Below the pieces are notes generated by a model that did no database searches, was not told the DNA's origin, and saw nothing but the letters and a program-made list of their open reading frames with translations. Of a stretch of DNA of 45,391 nt, positions 602 to 44,694 are shown piece by piece. The stretch is from a virus (taxonomy: Duplodnaviria > Heunggongvirae > Uroviricota > Caudoviricetes). The translations under genes and the position numbers were made by a program. Position 1 is the first letter of the stretch, and each line of letters begins with the position of its first letter. The DNA lies in the IMG/VR virus record IMGVR_UViG_2778261297_000007, positions 1-45,391 of that record, one strand, 5' to 3'.

Positions 602-1228
602 TTACCCGCGACTGCAGCCGAAATTACGGTCCCCATCACCGACTATTTTAGTTCTTACTTTGGTCATGTAATCCACCCTGTTCATCAAATCGCTATAAGT
701 CTGCTCAAAGTTGTCCCTTTTACGATTTAGGAGATATTTTCCATTTGATGGGTAATTAACTAGCTTCCCAGAGTCATCTATCGGGATGCCAAGTGCACTG
801 TACCAGGCTGTTGTTATCATTGTACGTAACGTGTTACGCTTTAAGTCATAATCCCCCAAATGATAATAAGCATCCTGATTGAAACACAATATCAGATGGT
901 AATGCCGTTTTCCATTTTTGGTATATTCTCGGACCCATGCGTAACGTAAGGTTGAATGTCGGGTATCAGGCCAGTCTTTTCGTTGAGTTTTAATATGCTT
1001 ATCGTGTTCAAGCTTTGCTTTTAACGCACTGGTAAAGCGAGATATAGCACCAGAGTCAACTCTGGGTTGAAAGAATGGGTTATCCATATTTTCTGTATCA
1101 ATTGGATCATGCAGATCAACACGAAGAATCATTGAGTTAGGATGTTCGTTGAGGGAGTCATCAATAACCTGTTGTATTCTATCCCGATATAGGGATACGT
1201 GTGATCCGAATTCACTATCGTATGTCAT
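602..1228 (-). CDS. Gp2/YfjJ-like family protein (inovirus Gp2-type, island core)
   Basis: 208-aa ORF with HYHLILCF motif; size and position downstream of the DUF3987 gene as in CP4-57-type islands (recalled family resemblance, not searched). Confidence 0.4.
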   Translation of the reverse strand: MTYDSEFGSHVSLYRDRIQQVIDDSLNEHPNSMILRVDLHDPIDTENMDNPFFQPRVDSGAISRFTSALKAKLEHDKHIKTQRKDWPDTRHSTLRYAWVREYTKNGKRHYHLILCFNQDAYYHLGDYDLKRNTLRTMITTAWYSALGIPIDDSGKLVNYPSNGKYLLNRKRDNFEQTYSDLMNRVDYMTKVRTKIVGDGDRNFGCSRG

Positions 1229-1358: not shown

Positions 1359-2774
1359 TCAAAGCTCGGGGTTTAAACCAGCTATGGTTATCAATGTGGT
1401 TTTGCCTTTCTTTGCCACTAGTATTCTATTTTGAGAGTACAACATACCGAGTAATTCATTTGCTTTACTACGCTTTCTAAATTTATTAGGACCATATTGG
1501 AGAACAGTATTTTTAGTAATGTAAGGTACAACAAGGCGGTTACAATGATTTTTTATCCACCAATAAAGCTCATCCGCCTCCGAGATTGCGGGCGTTAATT
1601 CCTGAGGTTTAGAAAATATGTGGATGTACTCATTAACATACCAGGTAGTTATCTTCACAGCATCTTCGACTGCAGAAAGAGATATATCTCCATCATTGCC
1701 ATTAAAATAATGCAGCAGAGAGGCCACTCTGGCCATATTTTCTGCGACCTTAGATGCATAGTCTCTAAAATCTGATAAGGTGCCGAGTAAGCCCATATCT
1801 GACTCCACCTTGTTATAAAATTCGATCCAGCGATTTTCTGCTTCTACAGAAAATCGCAGGCAAAGACGATCATTTTGATTATCTCTGGCAATACTTTCGT
1901 TAACTATCTCCATCAGTCGTTGATGGAATACCGGCAAATGTTCGCTTGAAACAACGGGGCTGGAGATTCTTCTGGAACCTTGCTTTGAATCAGGCTGGCA
2001 TATGAGACATCGAGCGAAAAAACCGATCCCTTTGGCTGTATCGCCTTTACGTTGCAGATAACCTTTAAACACATCAGGCTGAACCATAAGTGCTAGCGTC
2101 AGTCTGGCATCTCTGATTAATTTCTCTGGCTCACTTTTCCTTTCCACTGAAAATGTTGCGCCATCCCACATTTTGTTGATGAAAGGCAGTTCGTTCAGCG
2201 TGTAACCGTTAAAAATAGTGCCAGCCTCATCAGACATGATACCGATAGATCGCCAATAACCACAGAGGTAATCTTTAATAGCCGCAGGAGTGGCATCATT
2301 AAATATCTGCTTGAACCTGATCGGTGGTTGCTGGTGCGACGCCAACAGCGCTTTAAGTTGTTCATTTGTCGCCAGATGATCTTTGTTACGGCGAATATCT
2401 GATTTGAGTTTTGACATCAGTGCTTTTCTTTCAAAATTAAAAATTTCTTCATCACTTCGCCAGGTATTAAGAGCATGCGTGTACTTATCAAATAATTCTT
2501 CCTCCAGTTGATATAATGGCTTCATCAGCATTTTATCAACCGTACTTTTCCGTTCGCCAGATTCTGCAAGTGTCAGCAAGTAAAGTGATACTGGGCTACG
2601 TAGATTAGTAAGTCGACAAACATCAATCCGGTTCTGACAGGCAAGAGATATTACCCCAAGAGCAGAAGCAGCAATCAAACCTTGAGGGGCCTGCGTATGC
2701 TGTTCCACTTCATAAATTGCATTTCTGATAATCTGAGGGAACGCATTTACAGGAAAAGGATGACCGTTAAACAT
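1359..2774 (-). CDS. DUF3987 (YfjI-like) primase-like island protein
   Basis: 471-aa ORF directly downstream of alpA on the same strand; size and context match YfjI/DUF3987 proteins of P4-integrase islands. Confidence 0.45.
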   Translation of the reverse strand: MFNGHPFPVNAFPQIIRNAIYEVEQHTQAPQGLIAASALGVISLACQNRIDVCRLTNLRSPVSLYLLTLAESGERKSTVDKMLMKPLYQLEEELFDKYTHALNTWRSDEEIFNFERKALMSKLKSDIRRNKDHLATNEQLKALLASHQQPPIRFKQIFNDATPAAIKDYLCGYWRSIGIMSDEAGTIFNGYTLNELPFINKMWDGATFSVERKSEPEKLIRDARLTLALMVQPDVFKGYLQRKGDTAKGIGFFARCLICQPDSKQGSRRISSPVVSSEHLPVFHQRLMEIVNESIARDNQNDRLCLRFSVEAENRWIEFYNKVESDMGLLGTLSDFRDYASKVAENMARVASLLHYFNGNDGDISLSAVEDAVKITTWYVNEYIHIFSKPQELTPAISEADELYWWIKNHCNRLVVPYITKNTVLQYGPNKFRKRSKANELLGMLYSQNRILVAKKGKTTLITIAGLNPEL

Positions 2775-2900
2775 ATAATACCTCTAATACAATTCACGTT
2801 AAAAAATTCTGCGCAAGTTGTTATTCCGCTATTAATAGCAGAAATAGCAGGATGAAATAACTCTAATTACAACATTTTGAATGTATGTTAGGTAATTACT

Positions 2901-3113
2901 TCAAATAAGTTTGCTGCGTTGCGATAGCCATTCATCAATCTCTGATTCAACCCATCCAACAGATTTCACTCCGAGCATTCGCTTTTTGGGGAAGGAAGCG
3001 TCGTAACGCGGTGATTTGGGGTTCAACCAGTCGTAGATTGTTGCCCTTGCCATACCAGTTTTTTGGATTACCGTAGGTAAGCGGAGTATCCTAACGGTTG
3101 ATGGATTGTTCAT
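2901..3113 (-). CDS. alpA: AlpA-family transcriptional regulator
   Basis: 70-aa protein with the characteristic AlpA motif (ILRLPTVIQKTGMARATIYDWL...); located near a P4-type integrase. Confidence 0.8.
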   Translation of the reverse strand: MNNPSTVRILRLPTVIQKTGMARATIYDWLNPKSPRYDASFPKKRMLGVKSVGWVESEIDEWLSQRSKLI

Positions 3114-3238
3114 GCTTGATTGCCTCTCGTTAGTTCATTTTGGTTGTAGAAAGATTAGCGGCAAGCATTAATGCAAAAAATCCGCGTACCAAAAATACAT
3201 TTTTTACAACACTTAACTAATTGATATTTGGTGTTTTT

Positions 3239-3841
3239 ATGTTGACAGCGATTGAGTTTTGCGAAGAAATTAGTCAAAAATCGGTTTGTCTTTCTGGGCA
3301 GATGGTCGAATGTGATTGGGACATATACATTGATATGCTCAGCGAAAGTTATCCTGCGATACTGAAGGAACTAAGCGAAATGCGAGATCAGTTCTGGAAT
3401 TCTGATAAGGTAGGAACACGTGTGGTTTTGTATAGTGCTCCATCTCATGAAGAGTATAAATATTGTACTGGTGACAGAGTGGGTCAATTAATAGAGGAAT
3501 ATGCTGAATTATATGATCCAGTTCAGGAATGCTGGAAAGAGTTAAAGTCACGTATTTTCAGGGGAACATTTTCTCATCTTATTCAGGATCCTTTTTTAAT
3601 TAATGATGTGTTTAAATCACATCTATTTTTTGCCTCGATGTCTTATCAATGGGGAAAATCAGTTATGTCAGAGAATGAGTGTGTTGCTATTAAAGCATTC
3701 ATTAAATCTTCTGAATTATTTGATAGATGTATTGGTATGTCATGGTTTCATGTTTCTGTATGTGCTCAAAAAAATTATCCCATGTTAGAGCTAAAGCCGG
3801 AAAACAAGGTGGGAGCAGTAAAGCGGAAGTATATCGAGTAA
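3239..3841 (+). CDS. Hypothetical cargo protein (unknown function), AT-rich
   Basis: Open frame opposite to int/alpA; ATG at 3239 preferred over TTG at 3221; no recognisable domain; low GC relative to flanks. Confidence 0.4.
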   Translation: MLTAIEFCEEISQKSVCLSGQMVECDWDIYIDMLSESYPAILKELSEMRDQFWNSDKVGTRVVLYSAPSHEEYKYCTGDRVGQLIEEYAELYDPVQECWKELKSRIFRGTFSHLIQDPFLINDVFKSHLFFASMSYQWGKSVMSENECVAIKAFIKSSELFDRCIGMSWFHVSVCAQKNYPMLELKPENKVGAVKRKYIE

Positions 3842-4116
3842 TTCAAGATAAACTTGTTTATTTGATCAATGAATCTGTTCCTGAAGGTGGGTGGAAAAGT
3901 AAAGCAGCTGCGGTAAATGCTCTCATTGATCCTTTGTGGGACTTTATTAAAGAGTCAAATTTTGACATTAATAATGAAAGTAAAAAATATCGTATCGCAA
4001 CAATGAGCCAAGATGCTTTGGAAGATACTATTATTAAAAACTGGTCAAGAAATATTGAAAGTATCAAATTGGCTTTAGATAATACAGTTGCTAGAAAAAA
4101 GAAAGTCACAGGATAA
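3727..4116 (+). CDS. Hypothetical cargo protein 2 (frame -1 relative to upstream ORF; possible frameshifted continuation)
   Basis: ORF in a different frame overlapping 3727-3841 of the upstream ORF with no good independent start after 3841; may be a single gene interrupted by a frameshift or two overlapping genes. Confidence 0.3.
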   Translation: MYWYVMVSCFCMCSKKLSHVRAKAGKQGGSSKAEVYRVIQDKLVYLINESVPEGGWKSKAAAVNALIDPLWDFIKESNFDINNESKKYRIATMSQDALEDTIIKNWSRNIESIKLALDNTVARKKKVTG

Positions 4117-4142
4117 AAGCCCGTATTATTAATAGTTGAATT

Positions 4143-4167
4143 ATCAGCACCCATTATGGGTGCTGAT
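4143..4167. terminator. Bidirectional hairpin between convergent cargo gene and integrase
   Basis: Perfect inverted repeat atcagcaccc-attat-gggtgctgat located between the stop of the + cargo ORF and the stop of the - integrase. Confidence 0.4.
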
Positions 4168-4174
4168 AAAGGAT

Positions 4175-5416
4175 TCATCCCACAAGCCGTATTCCCCTAA
4201 CCCCACTATTAACGATACTGCCGCTATCTGCTGCTTTTACAAAATCAGCCCACCATTGCATCATCGGACGACGTTGCTCAAGATAATCACTGCGGTTATA
4301 AGCGCGACGCACCTCATTTTTGTCTACATGAGCAAGCGCTGCTTCAATGACATCAGGTGGAAATCCTTCCTCATTGAGTGCCGTACTGGCGATAGAACGC
4401 AAGCCGTGTGAAACAAGTACACCTCCTAAGCCAGCACGCTTGAGTGCTGCATTCACTGTTTGGCTATTCATTGGTTGGTTGGGCTTGATACGGCTAGGAA
4501 AGATAAATTCTCGGCCACCACTGAGAGGCTTCATCATTTCCAGAATAGCAAGAGCCCCATCAGATAGTGGAACCGTATGGTCCCGGTTCATCTTCATTCG
4601 AGCTGCAGGAATTTTCCATTCGCTAGCATTGAAATCGATCTCATCCCATCGAGCCTCAGCAGCTTCGGCAGGGCGGGTGATGGTTAGAAGTTGCCACATG
4701 AACAGGCATCGTGTGGACAGGCTGATACTTGCCGTGCGCATAGTCTGCATTAATTGTGGAAGTTGATCCGGGCGGATACTAGGCATGTTTTTCTTCTGCG
4801 GTTTCTCGAATGCTTTCCCGATGTTAACGCTGGGAACAGCATCAATTAGGCCTGTGTTCTGAGCATAAATCATGACTTCGTTAATACGCTGACAAAGGCG
4901 GCGAACAGTCTCTAATGCACCTCTGGCCTGAACCGGCTGCACTGCTTTAACCAGAGTATGAGCCTTAATCTCGGTGACACTGATATCACCGATTGCTGGG
5001 AAAACATCTCTCTCAAGCGAGCGCCAGATATCATCGGCATAGTCCTCTGTTACGCTGGCTTTCTTCACATTCCACCAACGCTCGGCAACTAACAGGAAAG
5101 TGTTGGTTTTAGCCTCTTGAGAATTTCTAACCTGCTCTTTCTGATGTTCCTGAGGATCAATGTCTTTCGCCAATAAAACTCGAGATTCAGCTCTGAGTTT
5201 ACGCGCATCAGAAAGGGAGACAGCAGGGTAGGCTCCGAAGCTTTGCTTGGTTCGCTGTTTTGTCAGAGGTCGATAGTAACGGAATTGCCAGAGCTTACTA
5301 CCACTGGACTTGATTAACAGAGTAAGCCCGTCACCATCATATAGCTGGTAATCGGCATCTTTAGGTTTGGCGGCTTTGATTTCCGTATCGGTTAACGGCT
5401 TGGTTTTTCTTGCCAT
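4175..5416 (-). CDS. int: Tyrosine site-specific integrase, P4-type (IntA/SlpA-like)
   Basis: Begins MARKTKPLTDTEIKAAKPKDADYQLYDGDGL (typical P4-family N-terminus); C-terminal catalytic region with R..H..R..Y-type motifs; adjacent to tmRNA 3'-end repeat. ATG at 5416 preferred over the upstream extension to 5452. Confidence 0.85.
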   Translation of the reverse strand: MARKTKPLTDTEIKAAKPKDADYQLYDGDGLTLLIKSSGSKLWQFRYYRPLTKQRTKQSFGAYPAVSLSDARKLRAESRVLLAKDIDPQEHQKEQVRNSQEAKTNTFLLVAERWWNVKKASVTEDYADDIWRSLERDVFPAIGDISVTEIKAHTLVKAVQPVQARGALETVRRLCQRINEVMIYAQNTGLIDAVPSVNIGKAFEKPQKKNMPSIRPDQLPQLMQTMRTASISLSTRCLFMWQLLTITRPAEAAEARWDEIDFNASEWKIPAARMKMNRDHTVPLSDGALAILEMMKPLSGGREFIFPSRIKPNQPMNSQTVNAALKRAGLGGVLVSHGLRSIASTALNEEGFPPDVIEAALAHVDKNEVRRAYNRSDYLEQRRPMMQWWADFVKAADSGSIVNSGVRGIRLVG

Positions 5417-5437
5417 GGGGAGTCTCCATGCGTTTAG

Positions 5438-5472
5438 GCCCAACGAAAACAATAGAGCTTTTCGTTGGGCCT
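5438..5472. promoter_or_regulatory. 13-bp-stem palindrome upstream of the integrase start
   Basis: ggcccaacgaaaa-caatagagc-ttttcgttgggcc, flanked by further tttaggcc/ggcctaaa symmetry; lies 20-55 bp upstream of the int ATG. Confidence 0.35.
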
Positions 5473-5540
5473 ATCAATGGGCCTAAAAGGTTCGGATTTA
5501 ATTAGTTCTCTTCGGACTTCGCGGGACAAAGTGAGGGCAC

Positions 5541-5572
5541 AAAAAAGCCCGCAGGGCTTGCGCCGTGCGGGC
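5541..5572 (-). terminator. Rho-independent terminator downstream of the tmRNA 3' fragment (minus strand)
   Basis: GC-rich hairpin gcccgca...tgcgggc followed on the minus strand by a T6 run. Confidence 0.5.
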
Positions 5573-5619
5573 TCTTAGGACTTCATCGGATGACTCTGGT
5601 AATCACCGATGGAGAATTT

Positions 5620-5654
5620 TGGTGGAGCTGGCGGGAGTTGAACCCGTGTCCGAA
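5620..5654 (-). repeat. att core: duplicated 3' end of tmRNA (direct repeat of 44332-44366)
   Basis: tggtggagctggcgggagttgaacccgTgtccgaa matches the intact ssrA 3' end at 44332-44366 with one mismatch; similarity stops immediately beyond. Confidence 0.75.
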
Positions 5655-5778
5655 TAATGCTTAACCTATTGAATATTAATGTTTTGTCTTTTTTGAAAGG
5701 CCTCAAGTGCATTTTACGTGCATATCGTGGTCCCTCTAACGTCCTGATTCCGTCCAACATTTTGAAATACTCACGACG

Positions 5779-6951
5779 CTACAGAGCTGCTGAAATGGCG
5801 GTTTTCCCGTCGTATTCAGCCAGGTATTTACCGTAATTGCGGAACAGCATTTCCGGCCCTTTATGCCCCATCTGCCCGGCAAGCCAGAAAAGGTTTACGC
5901 CCTGGCTAATGTGTCTGGTGGCGAATGTGTGGCGGGTCTGGTACGGGTTACGGTATCGAACGCCAGCTTTTTTGAGGGTTGGCACCCATGCTTTTTTTCG
6001 TATTGCGTCGGCGTTCGCCCAGGGCTCTCCCGTTTTAGGGTCGCTGAAAATAAACTCGCTTTTCATGAAAGTGAATTGTTTCTGCGCCTGCAGCGCGGCC
6101 AGCGCCTCGCTGTTTAATTCTACTTTACGGGTACCGGCTTTTGTTTTGGTGCCTTTCAGAACGCCAACAACACTCGCCGCCTGAACGTGAGCTGTTTTAG
6201 CGATATTGTCGAGATCAGGCCAGCGCAACGCACACAGCTCAGAGCTGCGTAAACCTGTATTGAATGCGAAACGGAACAGGTTTTCCCATTCCGGATAACT
6301 GCAGCTCTGGTAAATGGCGCTGATTTCCGCTGGTGTGAACGGATCAACTTCGTAATCGTCACTATTCGGGCTGCTGTCGATCACGTGGTACCGACTCGCG
6401 CTGACAAGGGTTACCGGGTTGATAGTCAGCAGGCCGTCTGTCACCGCTTCATCTATGGCGCTGCGCAGAAACGAGAGGTTATTCCTGATTGTTTTCAGCT
6501 TTGTTTTTCTGCTGGCGATCCAGTTTTTGAGGACCGCAGGGGTCAGTTCCGATACATGCATTTTGTGCAGCGCAGATAGCGCAGACAGGCACTTTTCATA
6601 ACCGCCAATAGTGGACGGCGAAAGGTTGCGGTTCTGGCAGATTTTCAGATACTCGTCCAGGTAGGACTTAATATTTTTGGTTTTCTTCACTACCCCGAAC
6701 AGCTCCAGTTTTTTGGAGGTGGGGAAGTATTTCGCATAATCGAATGTGCCGCCGGCGATCTGATTCTGTATCTCCCCCAGCAGGCGCTCGGCATACTTCA
6801 CGCCGCGCGCGTTTGCTTCCATTCTGGAAAGGGGCTCCCGGCAGAGAACCCCCTTGTAGGTGAATGTGATCACCAGGGTGTCGCCAGTTTTATGCTGGCG
6901 AATGGTTACTCCTCTTGGGAGAGATAATGATCCTTGTTCTTTCTTGCCCAC
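5779..6951 (-). CDS. int: Phage tyrosine integrase
   Basis: 390-aa ORF with C-terminal tyrosine-recombinase region (...RHTFATRHISQGVNLFWLAGQMGHKGPEMLFRNYGKYL); adjacent to att repeat and followed by an excisionase-like gene. Confidence 0.85.
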   Translation of the reverse strand: MGKKEQGSLSLPRGVTIRQHKTGDTLVITFTYKGVLCREPLSRMEANARGVKYAERLLGEIQNQIAGGTFDYAKYFPTSKKLELFGVVKKTKNIKSYLDEYLKICQNRNLSPSTIGGYEKCLSALSALHKMHVSELTPAVLKNWIASRKTKLKTIRNNLSFLRSAIDEAVTDGLLTINPVTLVSASRYHVIDSSPNSDDYEVDPFTPAEISAIYQSCSYPEWENLFRFAFNTGLRSSELCALRWPDLDNIAKTAHVQAASVVGVLKGTKTKAGTRKVELNSEALAALQAQKQFTFMKSEFIFSDPKTGEPWANADAIRKKAWVPTLKKAGVRYRNPYQTRHTFATRHISQGVNLFWLAGQMGHKGPEMLFRNYGKYLAEYDGKTAISAAL

Positions 6952-16690: not shown

Positions 16691-16767
16691 CGGCCCTTTA
16701 GCTCAGTTGGTTAGAGCGTGCGACTCATAATCGCCCGGTCGCTGGTTCAAGTCCAGCAAGGGCCACC
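16691..16767 (+). tRNA. tRNA-Ile2 (CAU, ileX-like; may score as tRNA-Met)
   Basis: Cloverleaf with anticodon loop CTCATAA; close to the E. coli ileX sequence as recalled; ends in CCA. Confidence 0.7.
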
Positions 16768-16769
16768 AG

Positions 16770-16844
16770 ACCGCCACTAGCTCATCGGGAAGAGCGGCAA
16801 CCCAGGTGTTGTGGTACGGGGTTCGAGGCTCCGGTGGCGGACCA
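16770..16844 (+). tRNA. tRNA-like sequence with anomalous anticodon arm (possible pseudo-tRNA or unusual tRNA)
   Basis: Good 7-bp acceptor stem, D arm and T arm (TTCGAGG loop), CCA end; by hand-folding the anticodon loop is 6 nt (CCAGGT), so the anticodon is unresolved. Confidence 0.4.
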
Positions 16845-16846
16845 CT

Positions 16847-16922
<76 letters not shown>

Positions 16923-16925
16923 TAT

Positions 16926-17000
<75 letters not shown>

Positions 17001-44331: not shown

Positions 44332-44694
44332 TGGTGGAGCTGGCGGGAGTTGAACCCGCGTCCGAAATTCCTACATCCTCGGTACTACATGCTTAGTCAG
44401 TCTTTACATTCGCTTGCCAGCTGCGGACGGACACGCCACTAACAAACTAGCCTGATTAAGTTTTAACGCTTCAACCCCAGGCAGGGCTTCCACGCGATCT
44501 CTTTTGGGTTTGACCTCTCTTGATCCCCGTCCTAAGAGCGGAGGCTAGGGAGAGAGGGCTCTAAGCAGGTTATTAAGCTGCTAAAGCGTAGTTTTCGTCG
44601 TTTGCGACTATTTTTTGCGGCTTTTTACGAGGCCAACCGCCCCTCGGCATGCACCTTGGGTTTCGCAAATCCCGTCGAATCCAGAATCAGCCCC
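44332..44694 (-). ncRNA. ssrA: tmRNA (SsrA)
   Basis: Reverse complement begins GGGGCTGATTCTGGATTCGACGGGATTTGCGAAACCC and ends ...GGACGCGGGTTCAACTCCCGCCAGCTCCACCA; contains the tag-template region (...AAACGACGAAAACTACGCTTTAGCAGCTTAA). Confidence 0.9.

Follow-up and report, generated by a model that had tools for sequence, protein, structure and literature searches.

The interval between alpA and intA

The window analysed here is the whole 45,391-nucleotide stretch of a Caudoviricetes virus record (IMG/VR IMGVR_UViG_2778261297_000007), the left end of which is a CP4-57-type island. Our subject is the gene that lies between alpA and intA in this island, which belongs to the yfjH family and is frameshifted in the window. 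Both flanking genes are on the minus strand: alpA (2901-3113) encodes an AlpA-family regulator or excisionase-like protein (Pfam Phage_AlpA, E 7.8e-24), and intA (4175-5416) encodes a P4-type tyrosine integrase, named from its annotation in E. coli relatives; the domains Arm-DNA-bind_3, Phage_int_M, and Phage_integrase are present in relatives. An AT-rich divergent intergenic region (3114-3238, 32.8% GC) separates alpA from two open reading frames (ORFs) on the plus strand. ORF1 runs from 3239, or from an alternative start at 3221, to 3841, and ORF2 runs from 3727 to 4116, such that the two overlap by 115 bp with ORF2 in the -1 frame relative to ORF1. Between ORF2 and intA is a perfect hairpin (4142-4168), 7 nt past the intA stop codon. 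The GC content of positions 3239-4116 (0.350) is clearly below that of intA (0.482), but only modestly below that of the remaining backbone genes (0.455 for alpA and 0.41 for yfjI and yfjJ).

An earlier interpretation made from the letters alone (hereafter the sequence-only reading) had already described two plus-strand ORFs that overlap by 115 bp, are low in GC, and are followed by a perfect hairpin, and all of these features are confirmed. That interpretation regarded the interval as unknown cargo in a variable, defence-prone hotspot, and left a choice between a two-gene module and a single gene of about 290 amino acids (aa) split by a frameshift.

Several lines of evidence from related genomes bear on this choice. 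ORF1 and ORF2 match consecutive segments of one 292-aa protein (tblastn), and because both do so, the frame discontinuity is not a product of chance. The interval is present in 36 of 5,426 complete E. coli genomes (megablast), 34 of which annotate a single 292-aa 'hypothetical protein' coding sequence (CDS) between alpA and intA. When the window is aligned to relatives such as L001 and L003, the relatives read C-A8-TTA (CAA AAA AAA TTA, encoding QKKL), whereas the window carries only A7 at 3768-3774 on the plus strand, which is one A fewer than in the 34 single-CDS genomes. The gene (3239-4116, plus strand) would have 292 codons if intact, and an intact 879-bp version is found in E. coli HL15 and others. 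Strain EC09 shares the A7 tract and is annotated there with two hypothetical CDS; among the complete E. coli genomes carrying this allele group, the tract is shared by 1 of 36. For annotation purposes, RefSeq records such as that of EC09, which list two 'hypothetical proteins', should instead carry one pseudogene.

Judged from these alignments, the two ORFs are a single gene for a 292-aa protein, split by a 1-bp mutational deletion in a poly-A tract. The ORF2 frame makes sense only as the continuation of ORF1, which upholds the earlier remark that ORF2 has no convincing start of its own. Thus, the frameshifted gene survives from the earlier choice, with a mutation as its cause, and the two-gene module does not. 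The uninterrupted frame of the YfjH family is broken in the window by A7 in place of A8, making this copy a disrupted member.

The best explanation, to which we assign a probability of about 0.8, is that the window carries an ortholog of yfjH, a conserved CP4-57-type backbone gene, as a heritable A8-to-A7 loss-of-function allele produced by slipped-strand mispairing at a mutational hotspot. Such mispairing would remove one A from the A8 tract. The 200-aa A7 product consists of 178 native and 22 foreign residues, and it is encoded by ORF1 as the variable, acidic N-terminal half (residues 1-178) with an out-of-frame tail, ending in ...VCAQK-NYPMLELKPENKVGAVKRKYIE*. Translation stops at this point, and the A7 allele therefore encodes the variable half alone. 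The sequence coding for the conserved, basic C-terminal domain, recognised by the family signature (3775-4116, plus strand), is out of frame with ORF1. Because the shift sits at the junction between the N-terminal half and this domain, the conserved domain goes unmade, save for traces arising from polymerase or ribosome slippage.

The yfjH family and its association with alpA

Over 289 aa, the intact protein shares 57% identity with E. coli K-12 YfjH (b2623; BLASTP, E 3e-122), and PHROG 19089 matches it over positions 1-292 of 292 (E 1e-169) and matches K-12 YfjH end to end as well. On this homology, the gene in the interval is an ortholog of the uncharacterised K-12 yfjH. The K-12 gene occupies the same site between intA and alpA in the same orientation, with the same alpA/yfjI/yfjJ backbone at ssrA, and has an A8 tract at the same codons (QKK). 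It differs in being intact, in representing another allele lineage, and in being annotated 26 codons longer at its 5′ end. The start of the K-12 gene (L004 3645-4601) is probably annotated 26 codons too far upstream, because both the ATG matching window position 3239 and the 125-bp intergenic length are conserved from lineage to lineage, and the extension enters the conserved control region.

The arrangement of these genes is highly consistent. A scan of a single genome for each species gave 10 loci, in Siccibacter, Pseudescherichia, Citrobacter, Mangrovibacter, Franconibacter, Hafnia, Photorhabdus, and Apirhabdus. The order yfjJ-yfjI-alpA on the minus strand, yfjH on the plus strand, and intA on the minus strand is present in 14 of 14 loci, including E. 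coli, from at least nine enterobacterial genera, these loci having been obtained via YfjH or DNA similarity. In the window, the two backbone genes beyond alpA are yfjI (1359-2774, minus strand; Pfam DUF3987, E 1e-98) and yfjJ (602-1228, minus strand; YagK/YfjJ_C, inovirus Gp2-like; Pfam E 8e-64). A converse sample consisted of 80 metagenomic loci retrieved through the integrase (IntA identity of 88% or more), and here a YfjH-family ORF divergent from alpA accompanies 27 of 27 loci with a co-directional alpA and 0 of 52 others. Furthermore, a profile search of 1.8 billion representative proteins yielded only 89 YfjH relatives, and five remote homologs (about 20% identity) adjoin a P4-type integrase gene, lie divergent from a Phage_AlpA gene, or both.

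Both halves of YfjH are under purifying selection (dN/dS 0.05-0.33, about 0.2), and for this reason the intact gene is functional. The synteny indicates that yfjH is a conserved partner of alpA in CP4-57-type islands at ssrA, transcribed away from alpA in every case and towards the integrase gene in most. EcCIMP1, a characterised phage-inducible chromosomal island (PICI) of E. coli, has no gene between int and alpA. Because that interval is empty, YfjH is tied to the CP4-57-type backbone and not to all AlpA islands. The sequence-only reading had asked whether the content between int and alpA varies among homologous islands, and the comparison finds the slot adjacent to alpA always filled by the YfjH family. 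What the gene proves to be is a conserved core gene of these islands, although not one with a known regulatory role.

A separate observation concerns the integrase. In about two thirds of the integrase-anchored loci (L025-L104), IntA is 88-100% identical and yet the neighbouring genes are wholly different, with alpA either absent or represented by an AlpA-like gene of 47-49% identity that is inverted about 3.3 kb away. Unrelated islands appear to have the integrase module in common.

The length of the alpA-yfjH intergenic region is fixed at 125-126 bp, and it contains conserved blocks despite YfjH itself being only 43-57% identical between lineages. This conservation is consistent with a shared divergent control region. 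A promoter consensus scan found no site in the intergenic region, and a repeat search of 3114-3238 found only imperfect AT-rich inverted repeats. In a CP4-57-like element of Shewanella, H-NS binds the alpA promoter and represses alpA (PMC5148205), and the AT-rich yfjH side may be part of an H-NS-silenced region. At the other end of the gene, the hairpin (4142-4168) pairs 13 bp without a mismatch around a loop of 3 nt, with a predicted stability of -22.6 kcal/mol (z = -4.0, with 0 of 200 shuffled sequences as stable). A strong hairpin of different sequence is found at the same position in six lineages, including K-12, and this feature is probably a terminator between the convergent genes yfjH and intA.

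The two halves of the protein have evolved differently. When IntA is held at 88-100% identity, the N-terminal half (residues 1-178) ranges from 100% identity to undetectable similarity, the C-terminal domain (179-292) remains recognisable at 26-100%, and AlpA spans 52-99%. The N-terminal half is acidic (isoelectric point 4.85), whereas the C-terminal domain is basic (9.58) and carries the family signature A.kGG.aKA..Y..vK.e...LL....P..GWKsK..A...I...L..F...WSR.D..VK.AF. The A8 tract lies exactly at the junction of the hypervariable half and the conserved domain. An AlphaFold model built with 23 close homologs had a mean predicted local distance difference test score (pLDDT) of only 54 and was discarded. 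A rerun with 60 diverse family members was used instead, and it predicts an all-alpha structure with a 66-residue helix at 147-212 (pLDDT 88, predicted template modelling score 0.75).

Comparisons with known proteins were less informative. The model has no informative structural neighbour in the PDB or among viral models, and a profile search against PDB sequences gave a best E of 0.46. Searches of Pfam, NCBIfam, and PADLOC with the intact protein and K-12 YfjH returned nothing above noise, and a Pfam scan of 60 diverse family members gave single spurious hits only. One match, to DUF2585/PRK00944 (E about 0.02-0.04), was far below cut-offs and was rejected.

Variation of the poly-A tract and its possible causes

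The exact 200-aa truncated product is encoded on 184 contigs and in 261 index blocks (NCBI, ENA, and Logan), and its intact counterpart is encoded on at least 1000 contigs. Islands with the A7 product occur in at least five flanking contexts: their cargo is type I restriction-modification (R-M), bacteriophage exclusion (BREX), or other systems, and beyond intA they are followed by ssrA directly, by another island, or by a prophage as in the window. A8 is the majority and ancestral state, and A7 is the minority state. Over 4.8 kb of backbone, both A7 and A8 are seen on each of the haplotypes [3074G,4029T], [3074G,4029C], and [3074A,4029C]. All four gametes are present for the tract versus sites 3074 and 4029 among sequences that differ by only 0-6 single-nucleotide polymorphisms (SNPs), a pattern that favours recurrent slippage over a single old event.

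Similar changes have occurred elsewhere in the family. At least three other allele lineages, from Citrobacter, Serratia, Enterobacter, Pantoea, and E. coli, also show truncation of the A7 type (...QKNY...), and there is a single A9-type product (...QKKIITC*). In one lineage, a C-to-A change lengthened the tract to 12 residues, and it is found there as A11. K-12 and most of the close alleles have the A8 tract, which is replaced in L008 by an equally slippery A7G version (AAAAAAAG) and is absent from the deeper clade L010-L012. A count of tract variants in K-12-type yfjH gave no informative variation, as all 364 E. coli genome hits were K-12 derivatives with at least 99% identity. Published yfjH mutations from long-term stationary phase were also considered as possible tract slippage, but they are IS2 insertions and were set aside.

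Other disruptions of yfjH include N-terminally disrupted forms on 98 and 26 contigs, as well as other frameshifts. The genes of Photorhabdus khanii (L013 4931-6390), with a gap of about 590 bp and frame changes, and of Apirhabdus apintestini (L014 6001-6800), with a frameshift near the same A-rich site, are also broken.

Given that homopolymer indels are typical of long reads and that just one of the 36 complete E. coli genomes carrying the allele group has A7, the missing A might be blamed on sequencing or assembly, as the sequence-only reading had allowed. This is hardly credible, because the exact product recurs on the 184 contigs noted above, from independent projects that include short-read assemblies, in varied contexts and on two SNP haplotypes, and it also exists as a RefSeq non-redundant protein (WP_023277022.1). 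Recoding, in which the A7 allele would still yield the full-length protein by -1 ribosomal frameshifting or by RNA polymerase slippage that adds an A, can point to a canonical X_XXY_YYZ heptamer (A_AAA_AAT at 3769-3775) in the zero frame and to a downstream ORF in the -1 frame that every A7 allele examined keeps open. In these respects the site resembles dnaX- and IS-type frameshifting and poly-A transcriptional slippage. In contrast to those systems, the window site has neither a stimulatory Shine-Dalgarno sequence nor a stem-loop, and its relatives are single-frame, such that the two-frame organisation is not conserved. The region 3′ of the slippery site forms no stable structure (for the fold of 3755-3860, z = -0.10 and 85 of 200 shuffled sequences fold equally well), and an Rfam scan of 2800-5800 found no match other than the ssrA remnant. 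A heptamer or A7 run that lacks stimulators is expected to give slippage only at the percent level, which weighs against recoding. The open downstream frame carries no information, because A7 alleles are too young: just 0-2 SNPs in 4.8 kb set them apart from A8 alleles. Overall, nothing suggests programmed frameshifting, another of the causes entertained earlier, and recoding in either form is very unlikely.

A further alternative is a phase-variable contingency switch, with yfjH ON at A8 and OFF at A7 or A9 through slipped-strand mispairing. Like known contingency loci, yfjH has an intragenic mononucleotide tract in which changes of one residue in either direction switch the frame, and its length has changed recurrently and independently: A8 has become A7 on at least three backbone haplotypes and in at least three other alleles, with A7-type products in at least four allele backgrounds and one product of the A9 type. 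The tract marks a domain boundary, K-12 and most of the close alleles retain it as A8 and L008 in its equally slippery version, a substantial minority of sequences have the A7 form, and the 12-residue tract seen as A11 also counts in favour. If there were such switching, the alpA-linked module would be in different states in different lineages or subpopulations, with effects on, for instance, how stable or inducible the island is. However, eight A residues are few for a contingency tract, and AAA is the preferred lysine codon; both points weigh against a switch. The tract is not conserved family-wide, being missing from the deeper clade, and other types of yfjH disruption are also common, a pattern that fits general decay. 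Phase variation is judged unlikely.

The last alternative, a variable cargo module of one or two genes that possibly serves anti-phage defence in an integrase-proximal hotspot, is the one originally advanced. Low GC and opposite orientation would suit it, as would an N-terminal half that is hypervariable in the manner of arms-race proteins, the ability of K-12 yfjH to block a retron toxin when overexpressed, and the 1.3-3 kb of extra DNA that a few related islands (L044, L085, L087, and L099) carry between int and yfjH or between yfjH and alpA. The island does resemble P4-like satellites and islands with defence hotspots, having a P4-type integrase and defence cargo (type I R-M in the window and BREX in a sister island). 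Unlike in those hotspots, the int-alpA interval is not where the variable cargo is found; the cargo is located past yfjJ, across the backbone. Moreover, the two ORFs encode segments of a single protein, alpA always has this same family beside it, and yfjH is often pseudogenised in host lineages. No PADLOC-DB family matches the intact protein or K-12 YfjH even at E ≤ 1, and YfjH thus matches no known defence family. With orthology to K-12 yfjH and the 14 of 14 and 27 of 27 syntenic loci, the cargo interpretation is largely refuted by synteny and has only a slim chance of being correct.

Some observations count against the loss-of-function allele that we favour. The A7 product accounts for about 15% or less of the contigs with the window allele, and A7 forms make up perhaps a quarter for the L003-type allele. 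A simple null allele would not be expected to reach so high a share, and selection or switching may therefore have a part in it. Every A7 allele examined has an intact downstream frame, which in the window is identical to that of intact alleles, although the youth of these alleles deprives the point of force. Also, the one experimental hint on K-12 yfjH is of another kind than the role proposed below: in an overexpression screen, the gene was recovered as a 'blocker' of the retron-Sen2 toxin RcaT (bioRxiv 10.1101/2020.06.22.160242).

Possible roles of YfjH and the surrounding elements

Tentatively, intact YfjH might be an island regulator or sensor that acts on the alpA/int induction-excision switch. 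The variable N-terminal half would confer specificity, and the conserved basic C-terminal domain would be a common effector that might bind nucleic acid or AlpA. A gene that serves the life cycle of the element itself is expected to be pseudogenised often in host lineages while staying under purifying selection in the long term, as yfjH is. The reports found on K-12 yfjH are limited to RcaT blocking and to preferential transcription in vitro by sigma-S RNA polymerase (PMC3141248), and neither settles the function of YfjH.

A bolder and decidedly doubtful proposal is that the YfjH family is the missing control element of CP4-57-type, AlpA-driven islands of Gram-negative bacteria. In this structurally novel, two-part protein, the hypervariable N-terminal half would detect a signal particular to each lineage, for example a phage or host protein, the C-terminal domain would hold the alpA/int switch off or modulate AlpA, and the slippage-prone poly-A tract would be a toggle that uncouples the two again and again. 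AlpA-type Gram-negative PICIs are reported to have no identified repressor, and their induction logic is described as unresolved (PMC6092414). A parallel exists with Stl of Staphylococcus aureus pathogenicity islands and Rpr of Gram-positive PICIs, whose genes likewise lie beside int, are divergent from the gene that starts excision or induction, and differ greatly between otherwise similar islands. Unlike those repressors, YfjH has no detectable helix-turn-helix or other DNA-binding fold and no sequence or structural similarity to them, and yfjH converges on int instead of being co-directional with it. The resemblance is positional only.

The finding in the window is in itself ordinary, being a frameshifted allele of a known but uncharacterised y-gene and not a new defence module. 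The results that accompany it are of wider interest, namely the tight coupling to alpA, a confident fold that has no known relative, purifying selection, and a variable N-terminal half joined to a conserved C-terminal domain, as would be expected of a specificity-plus-effector regulator.

Beyond the interval, the cargo of the island can be compared with that of a sister island (L110 1-5249), which has an identical backbone and the same A7 yfjH but carries BREX (PglZ and BrxL) in place of type I R-M. Cargo exchange therefore occurs distal to yfjJ. In the window, a 164-aa ORF (35-529) lies between the type I hsdR and yfjJ, at the junction of cargo and backbone. Although its relatives are annotated as helix-turn-helix regulators, it has no Pfam or PADLOC match.

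On the other side, the island is bounded by an att repeat (5620-5654, minus strand), a 35-bp copy of the ssrA 3′ end, which matches that end of the true tmRNA gene at 97% identity. Beside this ssrA remnant, Rfam gives a weak hit to the small RNA IsrM (5541-5629, minus strand), which at 32 bits, against a gathering score of 376, is almost certainly not significant. Occupancy of ssrA is in tandem: the island end is followed by a second integrase gene (5779-6951), which encodes a 390-aa protein that is of the Arm-DNA-bind_2 type in the relative L117, and then by a prophage of about 38 kb. The complete tmRNA gene is found at 44332-44694, whereas in other strains with the same island ssrA follows intA directly. 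Within the prophage, positions 16692-17000 carry four tRNA genes, for Met, an undetermined anticodon ('ag'), Thr, and Gly.

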